DNA from: Mobula birostris
Taxonomy: Eukaryota
Length of the DNA stretch: 64,000 nucleotides
Direction of reading: 5' to 3'
NCBI RefSeq assembly: GCF_030028105.1
Contig: NC_092371.1
Span: 129,409,025-129,473,024, forward strand
The notes under the pieces are model-generated. The model ran no database searches and was not told the origin of the DNA. It saw only the letters and a list, made by a program, of their open reading frames with translations. Below are positions 6,561 through 60,845 of this stretch, piece after piece. Every line of letters begins with the position of its first letter. Positions within the stretch are counted from its first letter, which is position 1. The translations under genes were made by a program, and so were the position numbers.

Positions 6561-6889
6561 ACTAGTACTTCATTAAAGCTTTATTGTGCTTTGAACAGCA
6601 GCCGTTCGTGTGAGAAGATGCAGCTCATCAGGTTTGCCAATTGAGTACATAAGGCATTGATTCACAGCAGTTTGGTGATCTGTGTAGCAGCCAATCAGTG
6701 ATTGGGATTGATTGGCAAGATCAAATTAAAATAAGGGAGGGGCAAGCACAGTGGCCATTGCTGGAGTGGACAGTGTTACAGCGGGAATTTTGAGACTTCA
6801 GTTAGGTGAGGCTCGCTGAACTCCAGATCATTCAAGAGTCTGAGGGGATGATGGATAGGATATATAGAGATACAGTTACATGGAATTTA

Positions 6890-9262: not shown

Positions 9263-9294
9263 CCAAATACTCTTTAAAAAACTTCTACAGATGT

Positions 9295-11949: not shown

Positions 11950-12215
11950 AGCTGGAGCTAAGAATCCACACATCTTTCCATGGACTCACCGCAGTTTCCA
12001 CACAGTTACAATTGTTGACTCCTATGTTTGCATTACAAAGGCTGCTGGCAAATCCTGCAATCCAAAAGGATAAGCATTGCCCTGAGAAAGCTTGCAATCC
12101 ACATATCCCGCTACTCGGGAATTATCACCGTCTAAACCTGGAGTTCCTAGAATACACATTGTCACTCCTGTGTTTGATGAGCGGCTGTGAGACATTAGCA
12201 CCCAGTCTGACATTT
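11950..12215. promoter_or_regulatory. candidate Nodal-responsive lefty enhancer (FoxH1 x3, Sox-Oct composite, Smad motifs)
   Basis: AATCCACA at 11963 and 12096, AATACACA at 12151; GTTTGCATTACAAAG at 12026-12040; lies in non-repeat sequence. Confidence 0.6.
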
Positions 12216-12672
12216 GGATGGCAACTGATTCTGACTTGACTTTGGGATGCAGAGTGAAAAACAACACTGGATACAAACAAGCTCTGTGAAAACATTACAC
12301 TTATGGGCAGTGTTTTCTCCTCACAGATGCTTCTCTCTGACAAACAAAGTGGCTGGGCAAGATGCATTTAAAACAACATTTTAATTAAAGTTTGCAAGGC
12401 CAACATTTAATGTTTCTGAATTATGTGGCTTAAAAGATTGCAAATACTAGGTTCAACAGGTTTAAATTTTAAAATTGATTCCCCTGCTGTCTGGGTAGGA
12501 ATGAATTTGCTGATCCTTACTCCAGGCCTTTCGATAAAAATGAATGCTCTTGTGGGAAGGGCACCATGGGTGCTGGTGGAAGCAGACACATTAGCGGAGT
12601 CTAAAGGGCTGTAGATAATACATGAATATTCAGGCTGTGACTTTGATTTCACATGATGATGACACAGATATC

Positions 12673-14320
12673 ATGGGTGATGGACCTACTCACGTGATGT
12701 ACACCATGGACTGATGGAACTTCCCCAGCGATGTACACCATGGACTGATGGACCTTCTCCAGTGATGTACACCAAGGATTGATGGACCTTCTCCAGTGAG
12801 GTACACCATGGACAGGTGGACCTTCTCCTGTGATGTACACCATGGTCTGATGGACCTACTCCAGTGATGTACACCATGGACTGATGGACCTTCTCCCGTG
12901 ATATACACCATGGACTGATGGACCTTCTCCCGTGATATACACCATGGACTGATGGACCTTCACCCGTGATGTACACCATGGACTGATGAACCTTCTCCAG
13001 TGATATACACCATGGACTGATGGACCTACTCCCATGATGTACACCATGGACTGATGGACCTACTCCGGTGATGTACATCATGGACTGCTGGACCTTCTCC
13101 AGTGATGTACACCATGGACTGATGGACCTTCTACAGTGATGTAAACCATGGACTGATGAACTACTCCTGTGATATACACCATGGCCTGATGGACCTACTC
13201 CTGTGATGTACACCATGGACTGATGGACCTTCTCCTGTGATATACACCATGGACTGATGGACCTTCTCCAGTGATGTACACCAAGGACTGATGGACCTAC
13301 TCCCGTGATGTACACCATGGACTGATGGACTACTTCTGTGATATACACGATGGACTGATGGACCTACTCCTGTGATATACACCATGGACTGATGGACCTT
13401 CTCCCGTGACGTACACCATGGACTGATGGACCTTATCCAGTGATGTACACCATGGACTGATGGACCTACTCCAGTAATGTACACCATGGACTGATGGACC
13501 TACTCCCGTGACGTACACCATGGACTGATGGACCTTCACCCGTGATATGCACCATGGACTGATGGACCTTCACCCGTGATATACACCATGGACTGATGGA
13601 CCTACTCTAGTGGTGTACACCATGGACTGATTGACCTTCTCCTGTGAGATACACCATGGACTGATGGACCTACTCCACTGATGTACACCATGGACTGATG
13701 GACCTTCTCCAGTGATGTACAGCAAGGACTGATGGACCTACTCCCGTGATGTACACCATGGACTGATAGACCTACTCCCGTGATGTACACCATGGACTGA
13801 TGGACCTACTCCCGTGATGTACACCATGGACTGATGGACTACTCCTGTGATATACACCATGGACTGATGGACCTTCTCCTGTGATGTACACCACGAACTG
13901 ATGGACCTACTCCTGTGATGTACACCACGAACTGATGGACCTACTCCTGTGATATACACCACGAACTGATGGACCTACTCCTGTGATATACACCATGGAC
14001 TGATGGAACTACTCCTGTGATATACACCATGGACTAATGGACCTACTCCCGTGATATACACCATGGACTGATGGACTTTTCCAGTGATATACACCATGGA
14101 CCGATGGACCTTCTCCTGGGACATACACCATGGACTGATGGACCTACTCCTGTGACATACACCATGGACTTACTCCAGTGATATACACCATGGACTGATG
14201 GACCTTCTCCTGTGATATACACCATGGACTGATGGACCTACTCCAGTGATGTACACCATGGACTGATGGACCTTCTCCAGTGATATACACCATGGACTGA
14301 TGGACCTACAGCCGTGATAT
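12673..14320. repeat. 34-bp satellite/minisatellite, left block (~48 units)
   Basis: Consensus GTGATGTACACCATGGACTGATGGACCT(T/A)CTCC(A/T/C), repeated head-to-tail. Confidence 0.97.
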
Positions 14321-16912
14321 AGAACATAGAACGGTACAGCACAGTATAGGCCCTTCGGCCCACAATGTTGTGCCGACCCTCAAACCCTGCCTCCCATATA
14401 AGCTCCCACCTTAAATTCCACCATATACCTGTCTAGTGGTCTCTTAAACTTCACTAGTGTATCTGCCTCCACCACTGACTCAGGCAGTGCATTCCACGCA
14501 CCAACCACTCTCTGAGTAAAAAACCTTCCTCTAATATCTCCCTTGAACTTCCCACCCCTTACCTTAAAGCCATGTCCTCTTGCACTGAGCAGTGGTGCCC
14601 TGGGGAAGAGGCGCTGGCTACCCACTCTATCTATTCCTCTTATTATCTTGTACACCTCTATCATGTCTCCTCTCATCCTCCTCCTCTCCAAAGAGTAAAG
14701 CCCTAGCTCCCTTAATCTCTGATGATAACGCATACTTTCTAAACCAGGCAACATCCTGGTAAATCTCCTCTGTACCCTTTCCAATGCTTCCACATCCTTC
14801 CTCTAGTGAGGTGACCAGAACTGGACACAGTACTCCAAGTGTGGCCTAACCAGAGTTTTATAGAGCTGCATCATTACATCGCAACTCTTAAACTCTATCC
14901 CTCGACTTATGAAAGCTAACACCCCATAAGCTTTCTTAACTACCCGATCCACCTGTGAGGCAACTTTCAGGGATCTGTGGACATGTACCCTGAGATCCCT
15001 CTGCTCCTCCACACCACCAAGTATCCTGCCATTTACTATGTACTCTGCCTTGGAGTTTGTCCTTCCAAAGTGTACCACCTCACACTTCTCCGGGCTGAAC
15101 TCCATCTGCCACTTCTCAGCCCACTTCTGCATCCTACCAATGTCCCTCTGCAATCTTTGACAATCCTCTACACTATCTACAACACCACCAACCTTTGTGT
15201 CGTCTGCAAACTTGCCAACCCACCCTTCTATCCCGCCATCCAGGTCGTTAATAAAAATCACGAAACGTAGAGGTCCCAGGACAGATCCTTGTGGGACACC
15301 ACTAGTCACAATCCTCCAATCTGAATGTACTCCCTCCACCACCACCTTCTGCCTTCTGCAGGCAAGCCAATTCTGAATCTACCTGGCCAAACTTCCCTGG
15401 ATCCCATGCCTTCTAACTTTCTGAATAAGCCTACCATGTGGAACCTTGTCAAATGCCTTACTAAAATCCATATAGATCACATTCACTGCAGTACCCTCAT
15501 CTATATGCCTGGTCACCTCCTCAAAGAACTCTATCAGGCTTGTTAGACATGATCTGCCCTTCACAAAGCCATGCTGACTGTCTCTGATCTGACCATGATT
15601 CTCTAAATGCCTATAGGTCCTATCTCTAAGAATCTTTTCCAACGGCTTTCCCACCACAGACGTAAGGCTCACTGGTATATAATTACCCGGACTATCCCTA
15701 CTACCTTTTTTGAACAAGGGGACAACATTCGCCTCCCTCCAATCCTCCGGTACCATTCCCGTGGACAACGAGGACATAAAGATCCTAGCCAGAGGCTCAG
15801 CAATCTCTTCTCTCGCCTCGTGGAGCAGCCTTGGGAATATTCCGTCAGGCCCCGGGGACTTATCTGTCCTAATGTATTTTAACAACTCCAACACCTCCTC
15901 TCCCTTAATATCAACATGCTCCAGAACATCAACCTCACTCATATTGTCCTCACCATCAAGTTCCCTCTCATTGGTGAATACCGAAGAGAAGTATTCATTG
16001 AGGACCTCGCTCACTTCCACAGCCTCCAGGCACATCTTCCCACTTTATCTCTAATCGGTCCTACCTTCACTCTTGTCATTCTTTTTTTCCTCACATTATT
16101 GAAGAATGCCTTGGGGTTTTCCTTTACCCTACTTGCCAAGGCCTTCTCATGCCCCCTTCTTGCTCTTCTCAGCCCCTTCTTAAGCTCCTTTCTTGCTTCC
16201 CTATATTCCTCAATAGACCCATCTGATCCTTGCTTCCTAAGCCTCATGTATGCTGCCTTCTTCCACCTGACTAGATTTTCCACCTCACTTGTCACCCTTG
16301 GTTACCTTCACCCTACCATTCTTTATCTTCCTCACCGGGACAAATTTATCCCTAACATCCCGCAAAAGATCTCTAAACATCAACCACATATCTATAGTAC
16401 ATTTCCCTGCAAAAACATCATCCCAATTCACACCCGCAAGTTCTAGCCTTATAGCCTCATAATTAGCCTTTCCCCAATTAAAAATTTTCCTGTCCTCTCT
16501 GATTCTATCCTTTTCCATGATAATGCTAAAGGCTAGGGAGCGGTGGTCACTGTCCCCCAGATGCTCACCCACTGAGAGATCTGTGACCTGACCCGGTTCA
16601 TTACCTAGTACTAGATCTAGTATGGCATTACCCCTGGTCGGCCTGTCCACATACTGTGACAGGAGTCCGTCCTGGACACACTTAACAAACTCTGCCCCAT
16701 CTCAACCCTTGGTGCCAATCAATATTAGGGAAGTTAAAGTCACCCATGGTAACAACCTTGTTATTTTTGCACCTTTCCAAAATCTGCTTCCCAAACTACT
16801 CCTCTGTATCTCTGCTGCTACCAGGGGGCCTACAGAGTACCCCCAATAGAGTAACTGCTCCCTTCCTGTTCCTGACTTTCACCCATATTGACTCAAAAGA
16901 GGATCTTGCGAT
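14321..16912 (-). mobile_element. young 5'-truncated CR1 LINE (ORF2 partial endonuclease and RT) inserted in the satellite
   Basis: ORF pieces PTRGNAILDLVL, KSPGPDGIFPR, DFSKAFDKVPH, GVPQGSVLGP, KFADDTK, LVRPHLEYCVQFWSP; (TTCTATG)n-type 3' tail at 14321; a few frameshifts and stops. Confidence 0.93.
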
Positions 16913-18250
16913 GTGATATACACCATGGATTGATGGACCTACTGCTCTGATGTACACCATGGACTGATGGACCTTCTCCAGTGATATACACCATGGACTG
17001 ATGGACTACTCCTGTGATGTACACCATGGACTGATGGACCTTCTCCAGTGATGTACACCATGGACTGATGGACCTGCTCCTGTGATGTACACCATGGACT
17101 GATGGACCTACTCCAGTGATGTACACCATGGACTGATGGACCTTCTCCTGTGATATACACCATGGACTGATGGACCTACAGCCGTGATATACACTATGGA
17201 TTGATGGACCTACTCCTGTGATGTACACCATGGACTGATGGACCCTCTCCTGTGATGTACACCATGGACTGATGGACCTTCTCCAGTGATGTACACCATG
17301 GACTGATGGACCCTCTCCTGTGATGTACACCATAGACTGATGGACCTTCTCCAGTGATGTACACCATGGACTGATGGACCTTCTCCAGTGATGTACACCA
17401 TGGACTGATGGACTTTCTCCAGTGATGTACACCATGGACTGATGGACCTACTCTTGTAATGTACACCATAGACCGATGGACCTGCTCCAGTGATATACAC
17501 CATGGACCGATGGACTACTCCTGTGATGTACACCATGGACTGATGGACCTTCTCCAGTGATGTACACCATGGACTGATGGACCTGCTCCTGTGATGTACA
17601 CCATGGACTGATGGACCTACTCCAGTGATGTACACCATGGACTGATGGACCTACTCCAGTGATGTACACCATGGACTGATGGACCTTCTCCTGTGATGTA
17701 CACCACGAACTGATGGACCAACAGCCGTGATGTACACCATGGACTGATGGACCTTCTCCCGTGATGTACACCACGAACTGATGGACCTACAGCCGTGATA
17801 TACACCATGGACTTACTCCAGTGATGTACACCATGGAGTGATGGACCTACTCCAGTGATGTACACCATGAACTGATGGACCTACTCCTGTGATGTACACC
17901 ATGGACTGATGGACCTTCTCCCGTGATGTACACCATGGACTGATGGACCTGCTCCTGTGATGTACACCATGGACTGATGGACCTTCTCCCGTGATATACA
18001 CCATGGACTGATGGACCTTCTCCCGTGATGTACACCATGGACTGCTGGACCTTCTCCCGTGATGTACACCATGGACTGATGGACCTTCTCCCGTGATGTA
18101 CACCATTGACTGATGGACCTACTCCCGTGATGTACACCATTGACTGATGGACCTACTCCCGTGATGTACACTATGGACTGATGGACCTACTCCAGTGATA
18201 TACACCATGGATTGATGGACCTTCTCCCGTGATGTACACTATGGGTGATG
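16913..18250. repeat. 34-bp satellite, right block (~39 units)
   Basis: Same unit as 12673-14320. Confidence 0.97.
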
Positions 18251-18360
18251 TATTGCTCTATATTCTATGTCAGGTTTCCAGCACGTGCAGATTTACCCCC
18301 TTTTTGTACGACTTTATCTTCAAGTAGCTCAACTGGGTGGAAGCATACCGTACGTATCCC

Positions 18361-18560
18361 AGCCGGGGAAAAAACAAATATTGCACCTATCTCAGCCAGG
18401 GGAATCCCACGTAAGCACAGGTAGAAGGTGTAAACTCCACAGATCAAATTAGGGTCTCTGGAACTGTGCATATGTCAGCTGGGGGAAACAGATACTGCTC
18501 ATATCTCAGCCAGGGGAATCCCACGTAAGCACAGGGAGACAGTGTAAACTCCACACAAAG
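18361..18560. repeat. ~116-bp tandem duplication of a SINE-like fragment
   Basis: tatctcagccaggggaatcccacgtaagcacagg...gtgtaaactccaca occurs twice. Confidence 0.7.
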
Positions 18561-21500
18561 AACCAGCGTCTCTACTGTTGGGAGGTAATAGCTGTGCATT
18601 ACCATTTCACTGTGTGTATCTTCCTCTGGTGCTGAGGAAAATTAATCAATTAGTATGTAGTTTGTCACTTAACACTGTGACGAGCTACTCTGTGATGAGC
18701 TACTCAGTGACAACCCAAAGCTGCTGAACAATTCCTAACCAGTCTCCCTCTTCCAAGGCTACATTATTTTTTAATTTCAACTTTTTTTCCTGTGCTCTCA
18801 TCTCCGTACTAAGACGCCTGGCAGAGACACAAGTCCATGGATACCTCACAGGAAGTACCTGGTTATTTTTCACTGCCCATTCTCTAATCCCCCGTCCCCC
18901 ACCCAAAAAAGGAAATGCAGATTGTGATGATTGAGTCACTCAATAAAACTTTCCAGGAATTTTGAAGAGAACCGACTGTATGATCACTTTGGGTCATTAA
19001 CAATGTACACTAATGTAGAACCTGTCACAGAGCAGAACACCCAGAAGTAGTTCATAGAGCCATTATCAAACAAAGGCCACCACTGGGCCTTACAGGGACA
19101 GAAACTCTGATTAAAGAAATCAGCATTAACAGTTTAACTGAGTTTGAAAGCTTTGCCCCTTGGCAGTATGAAGGCAGTCCCATCAATAACATAGCAACTA
19201 AACTTAGATTGCAGATATCTCCAAGGAAAAAGGATAGAGAGAGTCCATGAAGATGAAAAGGAAAGGTCAGGGAAGGATTTTAAATGAAAGATGCAAAGTA
19301 ATACAGAAATGTGCGTCACAAAGATGGATTTTCTCCTTGATGAAGTCTACGGGCCAGCGGGGGAATGGACAACGGCTGGTGTCCCAGTCAACCAGTCTGT
19401 GGCTCTGTACAGTGTGAACATTAATTGAATATATTCAAGTATGCCACTGGCAAAGCATTAAGCAGATCTTTATTACCCACAGTTTTAAAAACTTGATTTG
19501 AAACTGACTGTCATTAGATGTCATTAGCCCTTGTAACAGTGTATATTTGAGCAATACTAAAGCAGTAATTTTCATTCAGTACATTGATTTGCAACTTCCT
19601 AACTCGCTGCCAGCCATCTATTTCTCTGCACTTAATTACTTTAATGAAGAATTAAGTCTGACAACATTAGCACCACATTCGGCTGAGGAATGGAATGAGT
19701 TTGTAACTGTATATTCCACTCTTTCCTGGGTCAGACACACACCGAAACCATTTGAAGAATTTGAAACACAAGGGGTAGAAGAGGTGACTAATACATGGAT
19801 TTCAGCTAAAGTAAGAATACACTCAGAGATGGGCCGAATGGTCTGCCTCGCGGTTCTAGACTCAACGCACACTAACCTGTAATTCCTCATTCTGGCTCCT
19901 TTACCTTTCTCCCCAGCCCTGCAGAAGAAATGATTCTCCATTGCTTTAGACCACAGGAACCTGACAATACAAATATACTAGTCCAGTCTATAAGAACACC
20001 AGCCTTACTTCCACAGACTGTGCCAACATTTCCTGCTGAATCAGAAAAGCAGCCAACATAATCGAGGAACTGCCATCATGGTCACTCTCTCCCCTGTTAA
20101 ACGCCCGCCACCAAATCCCCTCCCCCCCAGTCAGGCAGAAGATACAAAATTTGAGAACACAACACCTTCCACCAGGCTCATGGACAGCTTCTATCCTGCT
20201 GTTATAAGACCCTTAGACAGAACAAATTCTTGATCTTTCATTTTACCATGTCACCGCCCTGCACTCTGTGATATAACACTGTCTCCAAGCTATTGTATTT
20301 CCTTCGGTTCTACTTCAATGTACTTATGCACACAAAGATCTTTCTGGATGGCATACCATAAGATTTTCACTATATCTCAGTAAGAATAATAAGTCAACCA
20401 CCAAAGCCAGTTAACCTGGAAATGTATTTTCAATGATAGGTTTACAATGCACAAAACAGTTGATATCCGATTATTTTATCAATGAGAAGGTTCTAATGCT
20501 CCACAAACACCTGTTACAATAACAAGGCCCCATCAATGTCAGATACTTAAGTACTGATCTTGGTCTTGATGCAGATTGCTGTCATAAAGCCTTGTTATGC
20601 CAGTTGTGACTGCTATTCCCATTGAGGAGAGCTGTCGCTGTAAAGCACCAGAAAGAGGTGCTGCTGCTATAAACACCAGAATAATGAGAGGCCTGTCAGG
20701 CTGCTCCAGCCTCCGGCTGTTGAGGGCAAGGAGATAAGGGAGTTATGGGCAACAACATTTATGCTTATCTGTACAGATCCTCGCCAGGTTACAAATGCCT
20801 GAATTATGGACATCCAGTACATACCGACGACCCTTTGGGAGACTGGTGGGATGGATGTGCTGGCTGCTGCCACTTTCTACCAAGTGGGAACATGACTAGC
20901 AACAACATTGTTGCATCTTGAAGAGAAATCTGAATAGTCAAGTCAAATGCCCTGATTTAACTGCTTGTGGGTCACACATGGACAGCTACAACTTTATGGA
21001 TTGAAAGTATCAGCAACTCCAAGGAACAGCCTGAGCAGCTTTGATTTTACACCAACTCCTGTCAGTGTTCATTTCACAGATACTGAGGTGGATGTGTTTG
21101 CAATTCTTCAGTTTGAAATCTTTCACTTGGCTGTCCACAGGATGCAGCTCACACCATATTTTATGCTGTGGCACCTACAACTGAATTAGACTAAAGCAAA
21201 CTCTCTGCTGAGTCATTACTAACAGCACTCTCAGCTGTCCCCCTCACAGCACAACAGAACTATAATACACTCTGTTGGAAAGTCACAAACCTGCACAAAT
21301 ACCCACTATACAATCCTGCATTATCAAAATGGGGAAAACTGATTCGTTCCGAGTGCCCACAGTTTCCTTTGCCTTGTACTTTACCCGTTTTGGTAACACT
21401 CGAAGCATCTGGGAGAGTTACGTGTGCCCTGTAAGAGTTGTTCTGCAGCACTATACCTCTTAAAGAGCATTGGTCACCGGTCTTAAAGCAAATAGCAAAT

Positions 21501-21659
21501 AAGCAGTCAGGGCAAAGATGAGAGATGGCCAGAATAAAGGAAACGTGCGCATAATTTGTAGTTATAATAAATTGCACAAAGACTAGTTTGGACGTTGGAA
21601 ATATTCGTTATATTTTTTGCAAATTAGCCCATCCCCCTGGTTAGTTTGCAATTTGCACA

Positions 21660-21775
21660 TAACCTGGAAGGTGTCAATCAAACTGAATGGTGTGACTGAG
21701 CCAGCAGTGTTTGATGTCTGCAGTCTGTATATAATCTGCTTAGTCTGGATGGCAGCTGCTGCTATAAAAGATCAA
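21660..21775 (+). promoter_or_regulatory. lefty core promoter: TATA box with Smad and T-box motifs
   Basis: TATAAAA at 21763-21769, ~150 nt upstream of the ATG; GTCTG at 21716, 21723 and 21743; AGGTGTCA at 21669-21676. Confidence 0.65.
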
Positions 21776-21913
21776 CAGCAATCATATACAGAGAGAGCAC
21801 AGAGGAGAGAAAGAGCACAGAAGATTGAAAGGAAACAGAAATAAAGGAAAGAAGTGATTTTACCAGCAACAAGAGGCAAAACTCCTCAACCATCAGGGGG
21901 CTGCTTCAAGGAG

Positions 21914-22208
21914 ATGACCAGAATCAACAGCAGCCTGACCACTATGCTGCCTGTCTTTGTTCTGTTGGTGCTGCAGACAGCCCCAATGAGTGGAGTCTCC
22001 CACGACAGCATTAAGAACGCCATGCTTCGTAAGCTAGGCCTAAGTGAAGTGCCACAGATGGAGAAGAGGGACCTGGAGAGGGTGGTGGTGCCAACACACC
22101 TCCGGAACAAGTACATGTCCATGCTGAAGCTGCACAAGGAGAAGGAGAGGAGGCGGAGAGCCCTGCCCAGCCTGGCCAGCATTTTGCGAGGAATTACAGG
22201 TAATGCAG
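21914..22208 (+). CDS. lefty: lefty (left-right determination factor, TGF-beta family) exon 1: signal peptide, start of prodomain, RRRR convertase site
   Basis: Translates MTRINSSLTTMLPVFVLLVLQ...LRKLGLSEVPQMEKRDLERVVVPTHLRNKYMSML...RRRRALPSLASILRGITGNA, a typical Lefty N-terminus. Donor GCAG|gtaaac after 22208. Alternative in-frame ATG at 21944. Confidence 0.93.
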
Positions 22209-23096
22209 GTAAACCGGGCTTTGATCTGCTTTTGACTTTGAAACCAGAAATACAATTATGTCACCTTCCTAGTGCTATCTTGTAATGTCTCTCTCCTGCC
22301 CCTTGCCTCAATCCCTCCAAACGTTGCACTGGGCTGGAATGTTGCAGTACAGGTAATGAAGGCAGATGCTCACCCGTGCCCCACAGGCTCAATGTCGTTT
22401 TGAGTTATACGGATAGACAGGGATTTCTTTCCCCTGGAGTGCTGGAGACTGAGCGGAGCACCTTGTAGGTGTATAAGATCAGGAGGGGCATTGATAGGGT
22501 GAAAATGCCCCTCGTGATTTTACACACCAGGGTTGGGGAATTCCTACATGGAAAGCACGCAGCCAGAGTTCCCGAATCATCATGTGCGAACTCTGAGGTT
22601 TATTGTGGTGATATCGGTTTATCATATTCTATCTTTTTTCCTTCGTACTATCTCTATATTCTGATGCACAAAATGGCCTTTCACTGTATCTCTGTAGATG
22701 TGGTGATAATAATAGACCATTTACCCATCACCCAGGCAAACTATGTAATACACAAGCAAAAGAGAATACAGGTTACAGTGGTACAGTCAGTGCAGGTGGA
22801 CAAACAAAGTGCAAAGCTGAACTACGATCCCCAAGTTATTCTGCATGAACTTAACAAAGCGCACTTCCAGTTTCTGTAACCTGTACACTTATTGCTGACA
22901 ACTGATCAACTCAAGAACACCCCAGCTTCTTTAAAGATTGGGGGAATTCACAACACCACTGATGACAAAGGCCGTAGGCTCACACTGTGTGAAGTACAGA
23001 CAATTTAGTATTTTTTTCTCCGATACAAATAACCAATGTACTCAAGATGGATATGGGAGTTTAAAACCTTCCAAGTAACCAGTTCTGTGTCCCCAG

Positions 23097-23340
23097 GCAC
23101 AACCGGAGAAGTGCTGTACTCAGACCCCACCAGGCAGAGGCTGGTTTTCGACATGAAGGGGCTGATCCCTGACAACAGCGAGGTGACCATGGCAGAGCTC
23201 AAGCTCTTCAAGAAGGGCGTCCACAAGGGGGAGCTCCCTCCCAGAAAATACAGCCGGCCAGTCAACAACGCCAGGGTCAGTGTGTACTGGGTCAAGATCC
23301 TGGCCGATGGCACCAACAGCACCTCGCTCATCGACTCCAG
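23097..23340 (+). CDS. lefty: lefty exon 2 (prodomain)
   Basis: Acceptor ccccag|GC; GTTGEVLYSDPTRQRLVFDM...EVTMAELKLFK...RPVNNARVSVYWV...TSLIDSR; donor AG|gtaagg; phase consistent with exons 1 and 3. Confidence 0.95.
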
Positions 23341-23724
23341 GTAAGGGCAAGACTAATGTTGGAATACGTTCCAGGGATTTGCCCAGCTGAGTTAAGACAA
23401 TTTAAGAAATGTTAAAGCTGATCTTTCCCCCACAGGGTTATTAGCTTTTTCCTCCCCGATCATTAATCAATAACAATTAAATATTCAATAAATAATCATC
23501 ATATTCTTTAAACTGATAAATACACATTTGTTCTCAAGGCAGTGAGCTTCATTCGCAAAGCTACCATTTCTAGATGCAGTACAGGTAGACAAAAGTGCAA
23601 AGCTACAATTATCATAATAAGGTTATGGTAAAACATATTGTTTTACTGATATCTGGTATAAACATACTGACTCCTATGATCATCTTCACACCCAGCCTCA
23701 GTTCCTTCGACTCCGCCACATTTA

Positions 23725-24835
23725 TTCCCAGGATGAGGCTTTCCTTTCCAGGACATCAGAGATGTCCTCCTCCTTCAAAGAATGGGGTTTTCCTTTCCCC
23801 ACCATTTACGCTGCCCTCACCTGCATCTCCTGCTTTTCCTGAACATCCATCCTCACCCCACCTTAATGGGAATAGAGTTCTTCTTGTCCTCACCGTCCAC
23901 CCTGTGAGCCTCCACATCCAGCACATCATTCCCTGCAACTTCCACCATCTTCAATGGGACCTGACCACCAAACACATCTCTACCTCCCCCTCACTCCCCG
24001 CTCTATGGAAAGATCACTCCCTTCCTGGTTCCCTTGTCTATTCATCCCTACCCACTAAACTCCCTCCTGGTACCTAACTGCGAGCACAAGAGCTACACCT
24101 GCTCATTCACCTCCATTCAGGGCCCCAAGCGGTCCTTTCAGGTGAGGCAACACTTCACCTGTGAATCTTTTGGGGTTATCTACTGTATCCAATGCTCCCA
24201 ATGCAGCCTCCTCTACACTGGTGGGGCCTAAGGTACAACGGGGAACTGCTTTGTCAAACACCTTCGCTCCAATTACAAAGAGCTGGATTTCACAGTGGCC
24301 AACCATTTTAATTCCTATCCCTATTCCCATTCCAACATGTCAGTCCAAGGCCTCCCCTATTGCCACAATGAGGCCACTATCACGTTTGAGGAGCAACACC
24401 TTATATTCTGTCTGGGTAGCCTCCAAGTTGATAGCATGAACATCAATCTCTCCAACTTCCTGTAATTTGCCCCCTCCCCCTTCCCTCTTCTTCAATTTCC
24501 AACTCTGGCCCCCTCTTACTTCTCCTCACCTGCCTATCATTTTCCCCTGGTGCTCCTTCACTTCCCTTTTTCCAATGGCCACACTCCTCTCCTATCAAAT
24601 TCTTTCTTTTCCAGCGCTTTACCTTTTCCACCTCCCAGCTTCTTACTTCATGCTGTCTCCCCCACCCACCTGGTTTCACCTATCATCTTCCAGCTTATAT
24701 TCATTCTCCACCCCTCACCTCCATATTCCAGCTTCTTCCCCCTTCCTTTCCAGCCCTGACGAAGGCTCTCAGCCCAAAATGTCGACTATTTACTTTGTAT
24801 GCTGCTCTCGTCCGGCATCTGCAAAATCTCTTGTG
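23725..24835 (+). mobile_element. decayed Penelope-like element (GIY-YIG region and terminus) in lefty intron 2
   Basis: FQVRQHFTCESFGVIYCIQCSQCSLLYTG; degenerate hammerhead core near 24755. Confidence 0.8.
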
Positions 24836-24939
24836 CTTACACTTAAAAATATAGCTGCTTTCACCTGTAACCAATGCCATCTGTTGCTGACAAAGATCAG
24901 CTACAGCAGAAGACACCTTATGGACTTGATGCCTGGAGG

Positions 24940-26962
24940 GAAACTGGAGATTCTGCAGATACTGGAAATCCAGAGCACCACACACACATGACACACAATC
25001 CTGCAGGAACTCAGCAAGTCAGGCAGCATCAATGGAAGCAGAATAAATAGTCGATGTTTCTGTTTGAGACCCTTCAGCAGGACTGGAAAAGGGCAAAAGC
25101 CAGAATCAGATGACACAGGGAGGGGAAGGAGTACAGGAGTACAGGCAGGCGATCGGTGATAAAGTGAGGGGAAGGTGAGTGGATGGAGAAGTGGGTGGGG
25201 GGGGGAGAAGAATGAAGAAAAAAGCTAACTTAACTCTCTCTGAACACACCTGCCCTCCACTCTCGCCATACCAACTTCACTCAAACTTGCTGACAGGAAG
25301 GGGGGTGGTTGTTTTCGTCTGGAGAGTGACCTCTACCTTGCTGAGGTCGGACAGCAGCTCTCAGATATCTCCTCTTACTTACTCCCTGCACTGGACCCGA
25401 CAAAGGAGCATCAGGCCATTGTCTCCCACACCGTCTCCACCTCATCAACTCTGAAGATCTCCCATCAACTGCCACCAAGCTCACAATTCCCTTACTTTCA
25501 GACTGCTTACTTTTGCCTCCTACCCAAGATCCACAAACCTGACTGCCCAGTAAGCCTATTGTTTCAGCCTGTTCCCGCCCCACTGAGCTTGTGTCCGCAT
25601 ACCTCAGCTCCCTTTTAACCCTCTTTGCTCAGTCCCTTCCCACCTGTATCCATGTCACTTCATCACTTCAGTTCTCCAGCCTGGATCACCTCATTTTCAC
25701 TTTAGACATATAGTCTCCATCAGAAACGCCTCAAAGCACTCAGCTTCTGTCTCAACAAGAGAACCTAACCAGTTCCCCTCCACCATCACCCCATTCACCT
25801 GGCTAACCTGGTTCTTACCCTCAACTCTTTCAACTCCTCCCACTTTCACCAAACGCATTGGCCCCTGCTGTGCCCACTTCTTCATCGTGTGGAACAGTCC
25901 ATGCCCTCCAACTTCTTCTGTTACACTGATGACTGCATTAGTGCTGCTTCCTGTGTCCATGCTGAGCTCATCAATTTCATCAACTTTGCCCCCAACTTCC
26001 AACCTGCCCTCAAATTTACCTGCCCATCTCTGACACTTCTCTCCCTTTCCGCAATCTCTGGCGACAGATTATCTATTGACATCTTTTACAAACCTATTTA
26101 CTCAGTTATCTTGACTATACCCCTTCCCACCCTGTTACTTGTAAAAATGCTATTTCCTTTCTCAGTTCCTCTGTCTCTATCGTATCTTTTCTCAGGAGGA
26201 GGCCTTCCATTCCAGAACATCTGAGATGTCCTTTTCTCCTCCCAAAGAATGGTGTTTCCCTTCCACTATCAGTGATGCTGCCCTTGCCTGCATTTCTTCC
26301 CATTTCCTGCACATCTACCCTCACCCATTTCCCCGCCATCATAACAGGGATAGGATTTCCCTTGTCCTTACCTACCACCCCACAAGCATCCATATCCGGC
26401 ACATCATTCTCTGTAACTTCCACCATCTTCCATTGGCAACACATTTGAGTTTGACTTCCCATTCTGAAATGTCTATCCAGAGCCTCCTGGACTGCCATGA
26501 TGAGGCTAAACGGGTTGGAGAGCAGCACTTCACATTCCATTCATGTTCTGATGGCATGAACATTGATTTCTCCAACTTCCAGCAGTTTCACCCCTCTCCT
26601 TTACCAGTCCTCATTCTGGTTACCCTCTCGCCCCTTCTCTTCTCACCTGCCCAATCCCACTCTGGTTTCCATCCTCCTCCTCTTTCTTCCATAGTCCACT
26701 CTCCTCTCCTATCAGATTCCTCCTTCCTTCAGCCTTTACCTCTTCTACTTATCTTCCATCTTCTTACTTCACCCCTCCCCCACCCACCCTCCTTCCCCCT
26801 TACCTGATCTCACCTATCACCTGCCAGCTTGAATTGCTTCCCCCACCCTCCTACCTTATTCTGGCTTCTGGCCCCTTCCTTTCCAAGATAAAACAGCAAC
26901 TGTTTATTCCCTATCCATAGACACTGACTGACTTGCTGAGTTCCGCCAGCATTTTGTGTGCG
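24940..26962 (+). mobile_element. Penelope-like element with RT remnant and inverted terminal arm
   Basis: KIHKPDCP..PIVSACS..TELVSAYL and YTDDC RT-like motifs; 24940-25240 is an inverted copy of the terminus at 26700-26962. Confidence 0.7.
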
Positions 26963-27304
26963 TAGGAAGGAAACACATCAGTGTAGGACAAACTCCTTGA
27001 GTTTTCTCTCTGGTGGACACTAGATAAAAGCGCGAAGTAAGCTGCCAGAGGTGGCGGTGGAAGTAAGGACAGTAACAACATTCAGTAGGTACCTAGATGG
27101 GCACTTGAATAAGCAGGTCAAAACGACATGGGATTAACACAAATGTGATTAGTAGGGGTAGGCATGGACACAGCGGGCTGAAGATTTTGTTCCCACTCTA
27201 TACAACTCAGATTCTAATTGATAGTGTTTTTACAACAATCTTCAACTTCTGTGGGCAATCATGGTGACAAGGGATTTCCATTCCAAATAAAACTAAATTT
27301 TAAA

Positions 27305-27705
27305 AAAACGGGACTATACGCTCTGGAATTCAGAAGAATGAGAGGGGATCTTATAGAAACATACAAAAATTTTGAAAGTTGTTTCCATTGGTAGGTGAGA
27401 CTAGAACTAGGGGACATTGCCTCAAGATTCAGGGGAGAAGATTTAGGACAGGGATGAGGAGAAACTGTTTTTCCCACAGAGTGGTAAATCTGTGGAATTC
27501 TCTGTCCAGGGAAGCAGTTGAGGCTTCTTCACTAAATATATTTAAGATACAGTTAGATAGGTTTTTACATAAAAAGGGAAGTAAGGGTTATGGAGCAAGT
27601 AGGTGGAGCTGAGTTTACGGACAGATCAGCCATGATCTTATTGAATGGTGGGGCAGGCTCGATGGGCCGGATGGCCTACTCCTGCTCCTATTTCTTATGT
27701 TCTTA
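27305..27705 (+). mobile_element. CR1 LINE 3' end
   Basis: RRMRGDLIETYK, TRTRGHCLK, FSHRVVNLWNSL, FKIQLDRFL; ttcttatgttcttatg tail. Confidence 0.85.
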
Positions 27706-29364
27706 TGTTAAATTCTAAAATAACTCAGGGTGGGATTTTAACTCCAATACAAGAGCTGGAGGAACTCAGTGGGTCAGGCAGCATTAATGGAGGGAAATGG
27801 ACAGTTGACATTTGGGGTAGAGATGACCCGAAAAGATAACTTTCTGGGAGCATCTGGAACTGAAATGTTGATTGCCCACTTCCATGCATAGACGTTACTT
27901 GACCTGCTGAGTTCTTCCAGCACTTTTTGTGTTGCTCCAGCTTCCAGCACCTGTAGTCACTCTAGACAACCACAATCTACTGTAACACCACTAGACTACT
28001 TAATTTACTTTAGATGAAACTTCCAAGTGCTAAGTGTATTTTTCAGCTTTAGTCCCTCTTCCAAAGAGCAGTTTATCACTGTGATGGTTATTCCTGGTCT
28101 CCCAGATGAGATCTCATCACAACATTTTATACATTTCAATGAGATCACTTCTTGTTTCAGTTCCAAACCACACAGGCCTCACCACATGTACTCTCCTCAC
28201 AGGGGAGGCTACACACCACAGCAAACCAACAATCTGGTGTTGTGGAGTCCAGATGTTTCTCTCTAATTTCTGCTGTTCTCTCCAACCCACCATCACCCAC
28301 TTCCTTACTTCTGTTGCATGTCGTGGGATGCACATAGTAACATCCTGTCAATTGTACCCATCTGCACATGCATGCCTGGAAATGTATAAATGTTAATACA
28401 CTAGAACAAAATATTCAAAAGTAAAATTTCATGTAGAAATTAATTTTTAAAATTAAGTTCCCAATCTGCTTTTGAAACAGCAGCTCCACACTATGTATAT
28501 TCTTCACAGCTGCCTTACAAGCAAAGATCTATTTGAGCTGCAGGGCATAGCAGCCCTCAAGTTCTAATAGATTAGGGTTGCAAACAGCAGCAAATGGTTT
28601 ATTCGCCTCTGTCCACAATGGAATCAGTAAAGGATACTTACAGTGGCACCCACAATCAATTACCATGGCTTTTAAATGAAATCAGTATTAAAACTGAATC
28701 TTGATGGCACTTAAACAAAGTTTGCACACAGCAAGTTCGGGGGACATTATTTTAAAATGCCATTGCCGTGAAACATTTATAAACTCGAGAAAGACATCCT
28801 TTGAAGAAAACGTGAGAAGATGGGAGAACCTTATTCATTTGGCAAACTTATGACATGGAATCCAATCCCAAATGAATAGTGGGACCAGCTAAAATAAGAG
28901 CTCTTGGACATGCAGAAGGAAAAAATGTGCAAGCCTGCAGTGAAAAGACAGGGCTTAAACTGAATGGTGGTTTCAGATTTTGAATGAGCGAACCACTCAG
29001 CTTCTTATCCTATTGCTTAAGTTTAATTACCCATTTGCAACATCCTTGGCAATTTTCCATGAAAAATTGAGAGAAATAATTGACTATTACAGTTGGGGGG
29101 GGGAGGGGGGGGAAGCAACAGTAAATCAGACATTCTATCCCTTGTTTCTCAGATTCTTAAGGCAAATGGAGCAGACTCCAGAAGGGACTTGGAAAGACAT
29201 GGTCAAAGGGACTGTTTCTGTGCTGTACAACTCAACTTTATAACAATGTACATCAAACATTGTTCCTGGCAACCATTCCAATTAGCATTGGTTCAGCACA
29301 ATACCTTTAACTGTGCAAAAGGAAGAGGCAAATTAATCGACTAATAACCTTTCTGCCTTGCCAG

Positions 29365-29601
29365 GTTGGTTCCTATCCTCAACTCTGGATGGGAAAGCTT
29401 GGACGTCACACAGGCCGTGTACTACTGGATGAAGAATGCAGACACACCCATGCACCTGGAAATCTGGATTGAGGCAGAGCGAATGGGCAGCTACGCAGCT
29501 GAATTAGCCAAACTGGTGCACTTCACCACTCAAAGCGCTGCTGACCAAGTACTAGGCAAACCAGAATTAGTCCTCTATACTCTCAACCTTGAAGAATATG
29601 G
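29365..29601 (+). CDS. lefty: lefty exon 3
   Basis: Acceptor ttgccag|G; RLVPILNSGWESLDVTQAVYYW...HLEIWIEAERMGSYA...GKPELVLYTLNLEEYG; donor GG|gtacgt. Confidence 0.95.
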
Positions 29602-30672
29602 GTACGTCTTTATTAAGGAACTTTTTGGGGCAACAACCAATTTTGTCCCTCTCCCCACACAGCTTATTCTGATAATCAAAATTAATCATTAACTTTACTG
29701 CATTGAAATTAAACAGGCGTAGTCTAACTTTACATCCTATGTTAAGCTATACAGTCATTGCCACAAAATAATTAAAATCTAATAGATATGACGCACAGTA
29801 TTCACAAAGCTGCCGCATTCATTTACGTTGTAGAAACTCTTGTTTGTTACCACAATCAAAGTAGAATCAGTTTTATTATCACTGACATACGTCCTGAAAT
29901 TTGTTTTGTGGCAGATGGTAGAGAGCAAGACAAAAACAATTACTACGGACTCACAATAAGCTCTACTTCCGCCAAGTTGCTTGAAAGTTAATTATTGAGA
30001 CAGGAATTATGCAACCTGTCATATAACCAGGGGTCTACACACTGAAACACAGGGCTGCAAGTTATATTTGGAAGTACAGTGTTACCTCATCTCAGCTAGA
30101 AGATGAATTAAATGTCTTGCAGTTCTTATAAAAATGCGTGGAGTTTGCTTCTATCAGTTGACTGATAACACAATTGATTAACATTTATCTTTTGAAGCTC
30201 AAACAGTGAAACTGAGTTTAAGAGATCAGGAGTATTTGTATTGGTCACAATTTCAATTAACTGCATGGAACCACAATAGTACACAATTCTTGACGCCATT
30301 TTTTCTGACTAGTTCAATCAAGTTTCATGAACAAAAACTCGGCCTTCATCCTGACACCCTACAGAAAATTTAGACTGCACTCTTTTCAAATAATCAGTAG
30401 ACAGCTAACTGCTGACTGGAATCTAATTAAAAGTTGCTTAATCTGCCCTCCTGCCATTTGTGAGAGAGCCTCTCTCTCAGGACATTTACACGATCCTATG
30501 ACATTTGTGTATTGGTATTAAAAGGACATTTTTTCATGTCAGAAAAGAGCATGAAAAGCTGATTTTGATTCAGTATGCAATGTTATCTAGCCAAACTAAT
30601 TTGTTGTATCGAGACAATTTACCCCATTTAGCTTTTACTTGGTAACTAATATTTGTGTTTTATCACGTCCAG

Positions 30673-30994
30673 GAGCACTGGCGACTGTGGTGCAGAGAAA
30701 GGCAGGACATGCTGCAGGCAGGAGCACTTCATTAGCCTCCGGGACCTGCCGTGGACCCAGTACTGGATCATCGAGCCCCCTGGCTACCAGGCCTTCCGCT
30801 GCCTTGGGGGTTGCAAGCAGCCACAACGGCCCTTTGACTACGGAGAGAGGAGCTGTGTGGCAGTGGAGAGCGCCTCGCTGCCCGTGATGTACCTGGTGAA
30901 GACGGGCAATTACACAGAGATCGAAGTGGCTGAGTTCCCCAACATGATAACCGAGAAGTGTGGCTGTACCACCAACAACGTCTCGGTCATATAG
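30673..30994 (+). CDS. lefty: lefty exon 4 (TGF-beta domain, stop codon)
   Basis: CCRQEHFISLRDLPWTQYWIIEPPGYQAFRCLGGC...SCVAVESASLPVMYLVK...EVAEFPNMITEKCGC, TAG at 30992-30994. It lacks the dimerisation cysteine and the long helix, which is the Lefty hallmark. Exons total 1098 nt = 365 aa plus stop. Confidence 0.96.
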
Positions 30995-31073
30995 CAGCAA
31001 CTTCAAAGGACTATGCAACACATGACACCTATTTCCCTTAAATCTCCTGTGAAAGCAGAAATGCAATTCAGAA

Positions 31074-31081
31074 AGCACTTT
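31074..31081 (+). promoter_or_regulatory. miR-430/427/302-family seed match in lefty 3'UTR
   Basis: AGCACTT(T) 80 nt after the stop codon. Confidence 0.6.
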
Positions 31082-34000
31082 ATGTAAATAGTGGAATTTG
31101 AAAATGTATATTTTTACTATTTTCTTTGGTAACTAAATTTAATATCAATGACACCTATTGGCTAGAGTCAATTCCTTACCAAGTTAGTGGAAGGGCATGT
31201 GGGCCAGGTAAAAATTTTAAGCAGTATTTCTCATGCTATTGTCCAGAGTACAGTCTTACATATACAATAGAATCAGCAATTGAGAGAGAGGCTACAGAAT
31301 CAGTCTGAATGCAAATAGGCAGAACTTGTATTAACATGACAATGACAAGAGTTGACAGATGGACAAAATGAGGAAGTACAGTGCGTGGAGAATTTTGGGT
31401 GAGGGGATGAACTAGAGGGCGTGCATACAAGGTGAGAGAGGGAGGGTCTGAGGGAGATGGGCGAGGCAATAATTTTTTTAACTTCAGAAAGTGGTAGGTG
31501 CCCGGTATGAGCTGTCAGAGGTAGTGGTGGAAGCAGATATGATAGTGGCATATAAGAGGCTTTTGGACAAGCACGTGAAAATAGAGGGAATAGAGGGATA
31601 TGGATCACTAACAGGCAGAAGAGATTGAGTTTAATTTGGCATCACGTCCGACACTGATTGTGGGCTGAAGGGCCAGTTTCTGTGCTGTTCTCATGTTCTA
31701 GGCTGGAGGAGAGCAGTAACAGACACAACTTCTACATTACTACCACTTAACCAGACACAGCGAGGTCAGCTTCTGCATCACCAGGGCTCCAGGTTTGTCC
31801 TTCAAAGCATGTGGGGCAAACCACATCGACCAGCTTGGCTATTTAACTCCATCCCCAAAAAAGTGGCTTATAACCATTACACACAAGGCTGGAGATCTGC
31901 TCAAAACAAAATACAAATCAGGCCACATCTAGTCCTAGCCCAAGGGCTTATAGTTTTAGTGGTACCCAACAGGTATTAGTCAGATCCTATCAGGTAAGGG
32001 TCAGAGATCCAGACTCAGGTGGGATCTGACTATACCTGCTAGATGTCAATAAACTATCACTAAACAGGTTTCCTTCTTTGAAAAGTGTTTTCTGAACCCC
32101 ATCGGGATAACATAGGTCCCCGCCCCACTTCAAGTTGATAGTTTTATCTCAGCCTGAGCTCCTAGCTGTAACTGAAACAGGAATCACAATAAAAATAGAC
32201 AGATACCTCAGATTCAGAGTTTCTTGGTCAGTGGTGCTTTTCCCTCTCCTGAAGGTTCCCACAATGGTATAACATAACCTTAAGGATCATAGCTGGCCCA
32301 TCCCATTCACATCCCTGCATCAGACAATTATCATGTGTTAACTGAGATCAGTTATCCACAGTCCAAATTCCTAGGAAACAGGTTAAGAGTGACATTCTGT
32401 GGGAGTGCCAAGGAATTGCTGAAATGGTGTACACGTCTGGTTCACCTGCAACAATACACCACAGGCTCCCAAAGTTGGACAGAGGTGGTATCATCAGAAG
32501 AGGAGACTAGGCTTTAACCAGCTCATTGCATTTGTACTTGCCACGAGAGTGACATAAAGATTCATCAAACGAATTCCTGGGGTGGTGGGTCTTTCGCGTC
32601 ATGAGGGACTGAGTAGATTAGATCTCTATTCTTTAGAGTTTCAGAGATGGAGGTCATTTTGTGAAAATACACAAACTATAATATATAGTAAGGCAGTTTT
32701 CCATATCTGAAAACTAGAGGTCACTGTTTAGAAAATAATCTTAATGAAATATACAAAATCCTAAGGGGGCATGACAGTGTCCACAAGTGGAAGAATCTCA
32801 AATCAAACGAGTTTCCAGATCAGGGCCAGTCATTTAAAGCCAATCTACCTATAAATTTCTCATAGTATTACAGTATGCAAGCAGGTCCTTCAGCCCAACC
32901 GGTCTATGCTGACCAAGATGCCTATTTGCCCACACTTGACCCTTCTAAATGTTGTTAATGTACCTGTCTCAATCACTTCCTCAGACATCTCACTCTGTAC
33001 ACAAACCACCCCATTAATCTCTCCCCTCTCACTTCAAACTTATGACTCCTAGTCCTTAATTCTTCAACGCTGGGAAAAAAATAAAACTGCATGTAATCAC
33101 CCTTCCTAGGCCCCTCATGATTTTATATACCTCCATGAAAACCACCCCCAATTCTCTAATGCTCCAATAAATAAAGTGCCAGCCTGTCAACTGTTGTCTA
33201 TAATTCAATCCTTTGAGTCCTTGCCAATATCCTCATAAATATTTTCTGCACTCTTTCTAACTTAACGGCATCTTTTCTCTAGTAGGATGGCCAAAATTGA
33301 ACACGATATTCCAGGTACAGCTCCATCAATGTCTTGTAGTAACTGCAACATAACATTCCAACTTCTATAATGAATGCCTTGACTGATGAAGGGCAACATG
33401 CTAAAAGCCTTCTTCACCACCCTTTCTAGCTGCAATGCCACTTTTGTGTCACCATATACTTGTATTCCTAGGCCCCAGAGACCTACTGTCTTGATTTGCC
33501 TTCCCAGTTCTTCTAAGAGAAGGAATTTTCTGATCCAATGTGCTGTGACTTGGGAAACTACATTGTTAAATGTATTTAAAGTAGAGGTAGATAAATTTTT
33601 GAAAGATTAGGGACACCTGAGGGCTAAGTTAGATCAGCCATGATCATACTAATGACAGTACAGGTTTGAAGGGCCCAGTAGCCTAGTGCTACTTCTAATT
33701 GTTTGTCATACACAATCTTAGAGTCAGGAGTAATCCATCTAACACTAAATTAAGAATTTTCTTCACCCAGAGGAAATGAACCATTCATATTTTCTGTTCC
33801 GGAGAGTTGACAGCAGGTTCATTCAAAGCAGAGACTACAAGATACTTGAGGAACCAGGCAACACAGAAATAGGGCAAGAAAATCATGTAAGAGGTGGGTG
33901 ATTAATAAGGACCTTGTTGAAAGTGGAACTTGCTGAAGAGGACAAAGGTTCTAATGTTCCTCTGGGGTTGACAATCACTTTATTGATATATGAGTTGAGG

Positions 34001-34451
34001 AAACGTGCAATATCTTGAAGGTGCCTCTGTGACACAGCCGGTGGAGCAGATGCATCACAACTCCAGTTGCCAGAGTTCAATCCTGACGTCAGGTGCTCTC
34101 TGTCTAGGTGAGCAGTAGAAATCTGGGATGGAGAGAGTTGACGGGAATGTGGGGAGAATGTGATTGGCATAAATGGTTCCCAGGATTGGGGAACTAGAAG
34201 CTATGGATTCAAGATGAGGGAGAAAGATTTCATTGGAACCCAATGGGCAATCTTTTCACTCAAAGGGTGGTCATGGTCAGTATGTGGAATGGGTTGCCAG
34301 AGGAAATGATTGACATAGGAACATAGATAGGAAAGGTTTAGAGGGATACGGGCAAATGGGTTTGGCTCAATGGGCATCTTGGTTGGCATGGACTAATGAG
34401 GTAAAGGGCCTGAGTTCTATACTCAAATGGATCTACGTAATCAGTACTTAC

Positions 34452-34818
34452 TGTTGCTGGTAGATTCACATCGTTTCCTTTATCTGCCGGCTTCTCCATT
34501 TCTTTAGGACTATTTTCAGTGCCCTCTTCCGTTTCAGGTTGTTCACTTTCTTGCGAGACCAAACTCTCTGCTTCCACTTCATTACTGGGTCCTGGATCCA
34601 CTTGTCCGTGTTCACTCTGAGGTTTGCAGATTGGCTCAGGCGCACAAGCTTCAATACTGGGTGCAGGGGCACAGTCTCTCACACCATCAACACCACTGCT
34701 TTCAACACTCACCTGCCCCACAGAACTCTCAGGGCAAGACAAAGACTTGGAGGAGCTACACTCTGCCACACAATCCTCATCAGAACTCCCAGATTCTTCC
34801 AAATCCTCCACTCCCATC
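34452..34818 (-). CDS. sde2: sde2 exon 6 (acidic low-complexity region)
   Basis: WMGVEDLEESGSSDEDC...NDVNLPAT; acceptor tgcag|G, consensus donor ACA|gtaagt. Six exons give 975 nt = 325 aa without the C-terminal SAP domain. Confidence 0.85.
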
Positions 34819-39789: not shown

Positions 39790-39898
39790 CAGAGACATTT
39801 TTTCTTTCCTTCTGTGGCCACCTTGTGTGCACCTGGATATGCACGTTTTTGACTTCCACTCTCCACTGCCACCACATCACTTGATGATGCTTGTAAAC
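39790..39898 (-). CDS. sde2: sde2 exon 5
   Basis: GLQASSSDVVAVESGSQKRAYPGAHKVATEGKKKCLW; ag/gt boundaries, phase 1 to phase 2. Confidence 0.88.
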
Positions 39899-40483: not shown

Positions 40484-40653
40484 CTTTAAGCACAGAGTCC
40501 TCTAGTCGCTCTGACATCTCGTCCAGCTGCTGCTCGTACTGTGGGTCAGTGAAGTAGTGCTTAGGCTCGGCGAGCCTGCGCTGCAATCGTTCCAGTCGCC
40601 TCTGCTCTTTCTCTGTCTCCCGCTCTGCCTGCTTCTTTATCCATTCAGCCATT
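40484..40653 (-). CDS. sde2: sde2 exon 4 (coiled coil)
   Basis: [57 protein letters not shown]; phases consistent. Confidence 0.95.
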
Positions 40654-42365: not shown

Positions 42366-42477
42366 GCTTTTTCATGGTTTACATCCCGCAGCCTCCTTCC
42401 ACTCAAATCTCGGCATGCCTCTCGATTTGTAGTTTTCTCGATCTGTGCTCCCAGTGCACGAAGCATTGACCCGAAAC
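42366..42477 (-). CDS. sde2: sde2 exon 3
   Basis: [38 protein letters not shown], the highly conserved SDE2 motif; cag| acceptor and |gtaag donor. Confidence 0.96.
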
Positions 42478-44714: not shown

Positions 44715-44832
44715 CTCCTTTTCCTCCGACCAGTCTCGGTTCCACACTGTAAACCGCCCCATCATGAAGGTCTGCATCTTCAGCAACCAGCTTTCCATTA
44801 CATTTTAGGTAAATATCGGCAGCAGGGAAGCC
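44715..44832 (-). CDS. sde2: sde2 exon 2 (end of UBL domain, GG|KGG processing site)
   Basis: GFPAADIYLKCNGKLVAEDADLHDGAVYSVEPRLVGGKG; ag/gt boundaries present. Confidence 0.93.

Positions 44833-60521: not shown

Positions 60522-60845
<324 letters not shown>

Follow-up and report, generated by a model that had tools for sequence, protein, structure and literature searches.

In Mobula birostris, an intact sde2 gene carries LeftyB antiparallel within its last intron, and LeftyB has likely exchanged two of its four exons with LeftyA

The 64,000 nucleotides (nt) of the Mobula birostris genome analyzed here (assembly GCF_030028105.1, contig NC_092371.1, positions 129,409,025 to 129,473,024; hereafter called the window) raise the question of where the sde2 gene ends. 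On the minus strand, sde2 can be followed to a splice donor after its sixth exon, and the sequence beyond that donor holds a lefty gene, LeftyB. The initial annotation offered three explanations: lefty sits antisense within the terminal intron of sde2, with the final, SAP-coding exon beyond the window; a local inversion or misassembly has disturbed the region; or sde2 lacks its SAP domain. Our analysis supports the first. We assign a probability of roughly 0.9 to the reading that an intact seven-exon sde2 is spliced over the intron that holds LeftyB, and that LeftyB likely originated a single time, before the chimaeras split off, as an inverted copy since partly homogenized with its partner LeftyA by gene conversion. 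This reading builds on the observed gene models, splice junction, second Lefty copy, and segment-wise pattern of likeness between the copies.

A profile search of the 4.0-Gb genome with SDE2_2C (PF13297) gave six matches, three above and three below the cut-off. The best one (98.7 bits) lies on the minus strand at G000:C3:129405618-129405794, at a distance of about 3.2 kb to the left of the window; the other two above the cut-off are neighbors on contig C35 and likely represent the related SF3A3 gene. The best match belongs to sde2 exon 7, which follows a pyrimidine-rich AG acceptor in phase 0 and has an AATAAA motif 324 nt past its stop codon. Its peptide scores 99.6 bits with PF13297 and matches the human SDE2 SAP domain (PDB 7n99) with E = 4e-27; the generic Pfam SAP model gives sde2 only 10.5 bits, below its own cut-off. 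The complete gene has seven exons in a frame of 396 amino acids without internal stop, and all six introns have GT-AG ends. N-terminal ubiquitin-like, SDE2, and C-terminal SAP-like domains (PF22781, PF22782, and PF13297) score above their cut-offs in this one frame. The introns measure, in order, 3800, 2237, 1712, 585, 4971, and 37,666 nt, the last being 7.6 times as long as the next longest (4,971 nt), and the whole of LeftyB lies inside it, antiparallel to its host. The donor reported at 34452 was confirmed as a consensus one, with ACA followed by GTAAGT, in phase 0. Likewise, the reported absence of a SAP-coding exon from the window was borne out with the real last-exon peptide, for which tblastn returned 11 matches over the whole window, the best with E = 1.5; in the surrounding 264-kb region, the single match was exon 7 itself (E = 1e-43).

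Splicing was assessed in contigs from the four of 22 listed runs that were aligned, which come from three organisms and three studies and include no run recorded as RNA; bridges were counted under a 31-letter rule, and depths were not used to rank genes. Introns 4 and 5 are skipped at their GT-AG ends in all four runs. Contigs that stop at the exon-6 donor resume on exon 7 at adjoining positions, as matched by length and depth. In run X19, a contig of 1534 nt carries exon 6 at 627-993 and exon 7 at 993-1534; the corresponding positions are 113-479 and 479-867 in X3 (867 nt), 2-159 and 159-715 in X6 (715 nt), and 113-479 and 479-508 in X2 (508 nt). Three of the four runs pass the 31-letter rule, X2 falling short with 30 letters on the exon-7 side, and the loose contig end at the exon-7 acceptor is the end of exon 6 in every run. 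Because the exon-6 contigs continue on exon 7, the main sde2 transcript is spliced across LeftyB, and the minus-strand exon that had been predicted left of position 1, joined to the 34452 donor by splicing, is in place. With its last exon found in phase and linked to that donor by contigs, sde2 is intact and keeps its SAP domain; the SAP-coding exon, though absent from the window, is present in the genome.

These junctions also bear on the proposal that sde2 mainly lacks a SAP domain, either because transcripts read through the exon-6 donor and meet a stop after 37 intronic codons or because they are polyadenylated within the intron. Read-through would yield a product of 362 amino acids, and the sde2 strand of intron 6 carries 23 AATAAA motifs, the first 467 nt in, but the exon-6 contig passes directly into exon 7 in all four runs. 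For the main transcript the proposal thus fails, and we regard it as extremely improbable; a minor truncated isoform may still exist, since contigs drop rare variants. An equally slim chance is left for a local inversion or misassembly that set lefty beside exon 6 the wrong way round. In its favor, a 22-kb satellite separates LeftyA from exon 7, and N gaps are found about 130 kb to the left and about 107 kb to the right of window position 1. Against this, neither the window nor the sequence between it and exon 7 contains a single N, leaving the path from exon 7 to exon 6 free of gaps, and exon 7 is in phase on the strand of sde2, whereas a single inversion carrying exon 7 together with lefty would have flipped it. 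The neighbors also fit, with the start of a histone H3 gene at 60537 and TMEM63-family exons past LeftyA. Moreover, a review reports that every chondrichthyan genome scanned has LeftyB in antiparallel orientation within the final intron of Sde2 (Kuraku, 2024, Dev Dyn, PMC12344233, section 3.5). The nesting is real and, according to that section, already known.

The same runs yielded further contigs over this region. Those covering LeftyB exon 4 have 31 mismatches over 291 letters in X2 and 20 over 166 in X3 and therefore likely derive from LeftyA and do not indicate LeftyB expression. A short X6 contig on LeftyB exon 3 runs past the exon into the intron and is thus unspliced RNA or DNA. An X2 contig on the 3' end of sde2 intron 6 could be pre-mRNA or DNA. 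Contigs of X2, X3, and X6 (39871-40511) contain the 585-nt sde2 intron 4 unspliced, in whole or in part, beside deeper spliced contigs, and may reflect a retained intron, pre-mRNA, or DNA.

LeftyB occupies 21914-30994 on the plus strand, opposite to sde2 as had been noted, with four exons that encode 365 amino acids without internal stop. LeftyA was found with the LeftyB exon-4 peptide (82% identical) at about G000:C3:129326372-129341439 on the minus strand; it has four exons with the same phases as those of LeftyB and encodes 370 amino acids, and its translation is identical to the Mobula birostris protein P0001. The distal copy is also the nearer of the two to the protein named StLeftyA (285 versus 262 identical residues). 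Along the contig, the order is TMEM63-family genes, LeftyA (-), the 22-kb satellite, sde2 exon 7 (-), LeftyB (+), sde2 exons 6-1 (-), and a histone H3 gene (+), from which it follows that LeftyA is the copy co-oriented with sde2. The Lefty copies stand head-to-head with their starts 89,499 nt apart. No PYCR gene was found between them: P5CR_dimer matches, of which there are at least three in the genome, lie on C4 and C28, with none on C3. Apart from repeats, the introns of LeftyA and LeftyB share no long matches. As a separate observation, the annotated LeftyB protein P0124 has 341 amino acids, compared with the 365 of the frame that opens with the ATG at 21914 (window 21914-21946); the longer frame equals in length the protein P0002 of a sister species, which suggests that the P0124 annotation may start late.

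The likeness between the two copies differs from exon to exon. Nucleotide identity in exons 1 to 4 is 71, 99, 64, and 86%, and fourfold sites differ at 11 of 29, 0 of 38, 16 of 25, and 11 of 37 positions (exon 2 versus exon 3, Fisher p = 6e-9). The identical stretch of 239 bases in exon 2 ends about 9 bases into intron 2. A tract with near-zero synonymous divergence thus adjoins a diverged exon 3, as is characteristic of gene conversion.

Comparison of 20 species, which contributed 40 protein sequences from a chimaera, sharks, and rays, revealed the same division in segments of 50-93 columns. The unpaired rows of Pristis (P0012) and Hemiscyllium (P0140) and the fragments P0015, P0023, P0138, and P0146 were excluded; the N-terminal tree had 45 rows, with Hemitrygon B left out as too short. 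In exon 2, LeftyA and LeftyB are on average 97.5% identical within a species versus 86% between species; in exon 3, the copies within a species share 66.5%, compared with 81-83% between orthologues. Exon 3 and the N-terminal 50 residues are nearer to an orthologue than to their own paralogue in 40/40 sequences. For exon 2, the paralogue is nearer in 19 sequences, tied in 13, and further in 8, and for the mature domain these numbers are 16, 7, and 17. In the exon-3 tree, LeftyA forms one group (98/97) and LeftyB another (97/96), each with chimaera, sharks, and rays, and the N-terminal tree gives the same split with one label change. The exon-2 tree requires 17 label changes and rejects a single LeftyA group (p-AU 7e-60); the mature-domain tree requires 13 (p-AU 1e-5). 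A tract tree that pairs paralogues by lineage, next to flank trees that group orthologues, is a second mark of conversion, here read from proteins and with exon-3 labels that are partly circular. Homogenization is most complete in three skates (P0019, P0020, and P0142-P0145), whose LeftyA and LeftyB are the same in exon 2 (80/80) and in the mature domain (93/93).

A different history would keep the nesting but have LeftyA and LeftyB duplicate separately in sharks, rays, and chimaeras, with exon 2 kept alike by purifying selection. The published whole-protein tree, with one A-B pair per lineage (PMC12344233), agrees with such a history, and our exon-2 and mature-domain trees show the same pairing. 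In all 40 sequences, however, the history is contradicted by exon 3 and the N-terminus, and three independent insertions into one intron would be needed. Purifying selection on the protein also leaves unexplained both the complete lack of fourfold differences in exon 2 (0/38) and the lineage-specific residues common to A and B, as in the skates, where 80 of 80 positions are identical within species. We therefore judge separate duplications to be unlikely. Gene conversion with LeftyA likely continues to affect two of the four LeftyB exons, and the pattern favors one old duplication followed by repeated segmental conversion, because exon 3 and the N-terminus split by copy, while exon 2 and the mature ligand pair by lineage.

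Several points weigh against the reading of an intact, spliced sde2 with an old, partly converted Lefty pair. That the contigs are RNA is the guess of a tool, backed by the skipped GT-AG introns; they therefore speak for the junction but not for strand, level, or rare isoforms, and the course of sde2 intron 6 is read from the assembled sequence. In this assembly, the exon-2 identity may be a polishing artefact, although the proteins of 19 other species show the same tendency. The A and B labels come from cluster membership and from how the N-terminus and exon 3 look, which makes the exon-3 grouping partly circular; the linked N-terminus, across homogenized exon 2 from exon 3, gives the same split. 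The nested versus distal position was checked in this genome only. The segments are short, and the exon-2 bootstrap had not settled. When lamprey, amphioxus, and Ciona are added, chimaera A leaves the A group at an unsupported fork. Finally, the mature domains of Mobula and two stingrays are 81-87% alike between copies and group by A and B within that clade, so that conversion there would be old or stopped.

With regard to the bony/cartilaginous split, the placements of A with B, B with bony vertebrates, and A with bony vertebrates all stand unrejected (p-AU 0.40, 0.44, and 0.12; based on 10 of the 20 species). Of the two copies, LeftyB is the more similar to bony-vertebrate Lefty, for exon 3 in 19 of 20 species and for the N-terminus in 18 of 20, a closeness that may reflect rate alone.

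The preferred reading, an old inverted duplicate with repeated segmental exchange, suggests the following course of events. Before the divergence of chimaeras, an inverted Lefty duplicate would have landed in the last intron of sde2. If exon 6 is joined to exon 7 in cis, sde2 pre-mRNA must cross LeftyB and its upstream DNA in antisense; the intron would then be excised whole, leaving no Lefty sequence in sde2 mRNA. Exon 2, together with most of the exon for the mature ligand, would have been copied repeatedly between the two loci, and exons that stay alike would continue to serve as mutual templates. The signal-peptide region and exon 3 may be too diverged to pair or may be kept apart by selection. 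From the geometry of the locus, crossing over between the two inverted genes would reverse the 90-kb segment that includes sde2 exon 7 and sever the SAP domain, and since this would break sde2, selection would pass non-crossover conversion and purge inversions. SDE2 is described as essential in mammalian cells (PMC8450105), and its SAP domain as required for fork function (PMC9399289).

A stronger version of this scheme is tentative, and we lean somewhat against it: the pair would be a single ancient inverted duplication locked in place by the last exon of essential sde2, restricted to conversion as its only recombination, and yielding two distinct precursors of nearly the same Nodal antagonist. 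If it is true, recombination survives only in non-crossover form, with exon 7 lying between the inverted copies; exon 2 and the mature ligand have stayed near-identical per lineage since before chimaera divergence, with the signal peptide and prodomain exon 3 copy-specific; and the LeftyA and LeftyB precursors differ in processing and regulation. Independently of this version, the mosaic points to precursor parts that may differ functionally between the two. Whole-protein Lefty trees mislead, and exon 3 and the N-terminus are therefore the parts from which to assign orthology. LeftyA and LeftyB would likely be indistinguishable to probes for exon 2 or exon 4, and unstranded intronic sde2 signal could pass for LeftyB.

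The features of the locus are collected in Table 1.

Table 1. Features of sde2, LeftyB, and the intervening intron. Positions are those of the window, except for exon 7.
Feature	Position	Strand	Characteristics
sde2 exon 1, coding part	48633..48731	-	ATG at 48731, GT donor, open in the 396-amino-acid model
sde2 exon 2	44715..44832	-	AG/GT; PF22781 Sde2_N_Ubi_vert, 34.9 bits, above cut-off
sde2 exon 3	42366..42477	-	AG/GT; PF22782 SDE2, 51.9 bits
sde2 exon 4	40484..40653	-	AG/GT; PF22782; splice to exon 5 in 4/4 runs
sde2 exon 5	39790..39898	-	AG/GT; splice to exon 6 in 4/4 runs
sde2 exon 6	34452..34818	-	Ends ACA then GTAAGT; phase-0 donor at 34451
sde2 intron 6, window part	1..34451	-	Contains whole LeftyB; 3,215 nt more left of the window
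sde2 exon 7 (outside the window)	G000:C3:129405594-129405809	-	SAP-like SDE2_2C domain and lysine-rich tail, 71 amino acids plus stop
LeftyB exon 1, coding part	21914..22208	+	Signal peptide, start of prodomain
LeftyB exon 2	23097..23340	+	Shares a run of 239 identical bases with LeftyA exon 2
LeftyB exon 3	29365..29601	+	Not homogenized; 64% identical to LeftyA exon 3 at the nucleotide level
LeftyB exon 4, coding part	30673..30994	+	Mature TGF-beta domain, PF00019, 50 bits; 86% to LeftyA
Three FoxH1-type sites within 196 nt	11963..12158	+	9.8 kb upstream of LeftyB, inside sde2 intron 6

The FoxH1-type cluster (motif as in PMC9634164) is a weakly supported candidate for a Nodal-responsive enhancer. 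It is single-copy in a genome search, with a cluster P of about 0.011 that was calculated post hoc. Across the window, the motif shows no enrichment, with 11 occurrences against 6.95 expected and 6 of 100 shuffles reaching as high; over 140 kb there are 52 occurrences against 11.9 expected, an excess that stems largely from the satellite. A FoxH1-dependent asymmetric enhancer (ASE) of Lefty would combine a cluster of FoxH1 sites upstream of the gene with cross-species conservation and reporter activity, of which the window sequence shows the cluster. In catshark, embryonic LeftyB expression is reported to be lost upon inhibition of Nodal/activin signaling (PMC4232768).

The 22-kb satellite that separates LeftyA from sde2 exon 7 is a tandem array located about 40,700-63,400 nt to the left of the window (L010-L012); its units are rich in FoxH1-type motifs, which is probably incidental. 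Within sde2 intron 6, two arrays of one 34-bp minisatellite lie at 12678-14318 (49 copies) and 16913-18244 (40 copies), and between them, at about 14806-16044, is a reverse-transcriptase fragment that we take to be LINE-like. An Rfam search of the window and the flanking piece L007 gave no matches. Past LeftyA, two genes of the TMEM63 family (PF02714) stand tail-to-tail at 160-250 kb to the left of the window (G000:C3:129159928-129250683; L033-L042); they are old paralogues, being about 70-75% alike in two matched exons, and a third gene of the family is present on C1. On the other side, the histone H3 gene, presumably H3.3 (H3-3A), contains an intron and stands head-to-head with sde2, its first coding exon beginning at window 60537 on the plus strand. 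Open frames about 24 kb and about 93 kb right of the window presumably belong to ACBD3.

Among known systems, the closest is the chondrichthyan cluster described by Kuraku (2024), which shares with the Mobula locus the same genes, nesting, and orientation, a linked LeftyA, the lack of a PYCR gene in between, and a cartilaginous host. It differs in the distance between starts, 60 kb compared with 89.5 kb in Mobula, and in the exons that flank the host intron, given as the third and fourth (last) compared with exons 6 and 7 of 7 (PMC12344233). The present nesting adds one ray to the published pattern, with splice-junction support. The published account is based on a whole-protein tree, and its text, in which "exon" occurs three times and "mosaic" and "inversion" do not occur, contains no exon-wise analysis. 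Section 3.5 leaves undecided whether sharks, rays, and chimaeras each acquired an A/B pair of their own or share a single origin followed by conversion, and the exon-wise mosaic bears directly on this question. Such a mosaic was found neither in that text nor elsewhere in print, in a search that left most subscription journals outside, and it represents a modest, testable addition to the published nesting. Compared with human SDE2 (PDB 7n99; PMC9399289), residues 6-71 of Mobula exon 7 align to the C-terminus, tail lysines included, with the difference that the SAP exon of the ray is encoded past a 37.7-kb intron. The eutherian Lefty1-Pycr2-Lefty2 cluster likewise comprises two linked Lefty genes by Sde2 that evolve in concert, with species-wise gene conversion reported between Lefty1 and Lefty2 (PMC12344233). 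There, however, the genes are arranged head-to-tail with Pycr2 between them and are not nested, whereas the Mobula pair is head-to-head, with the last sde2 exon in between.

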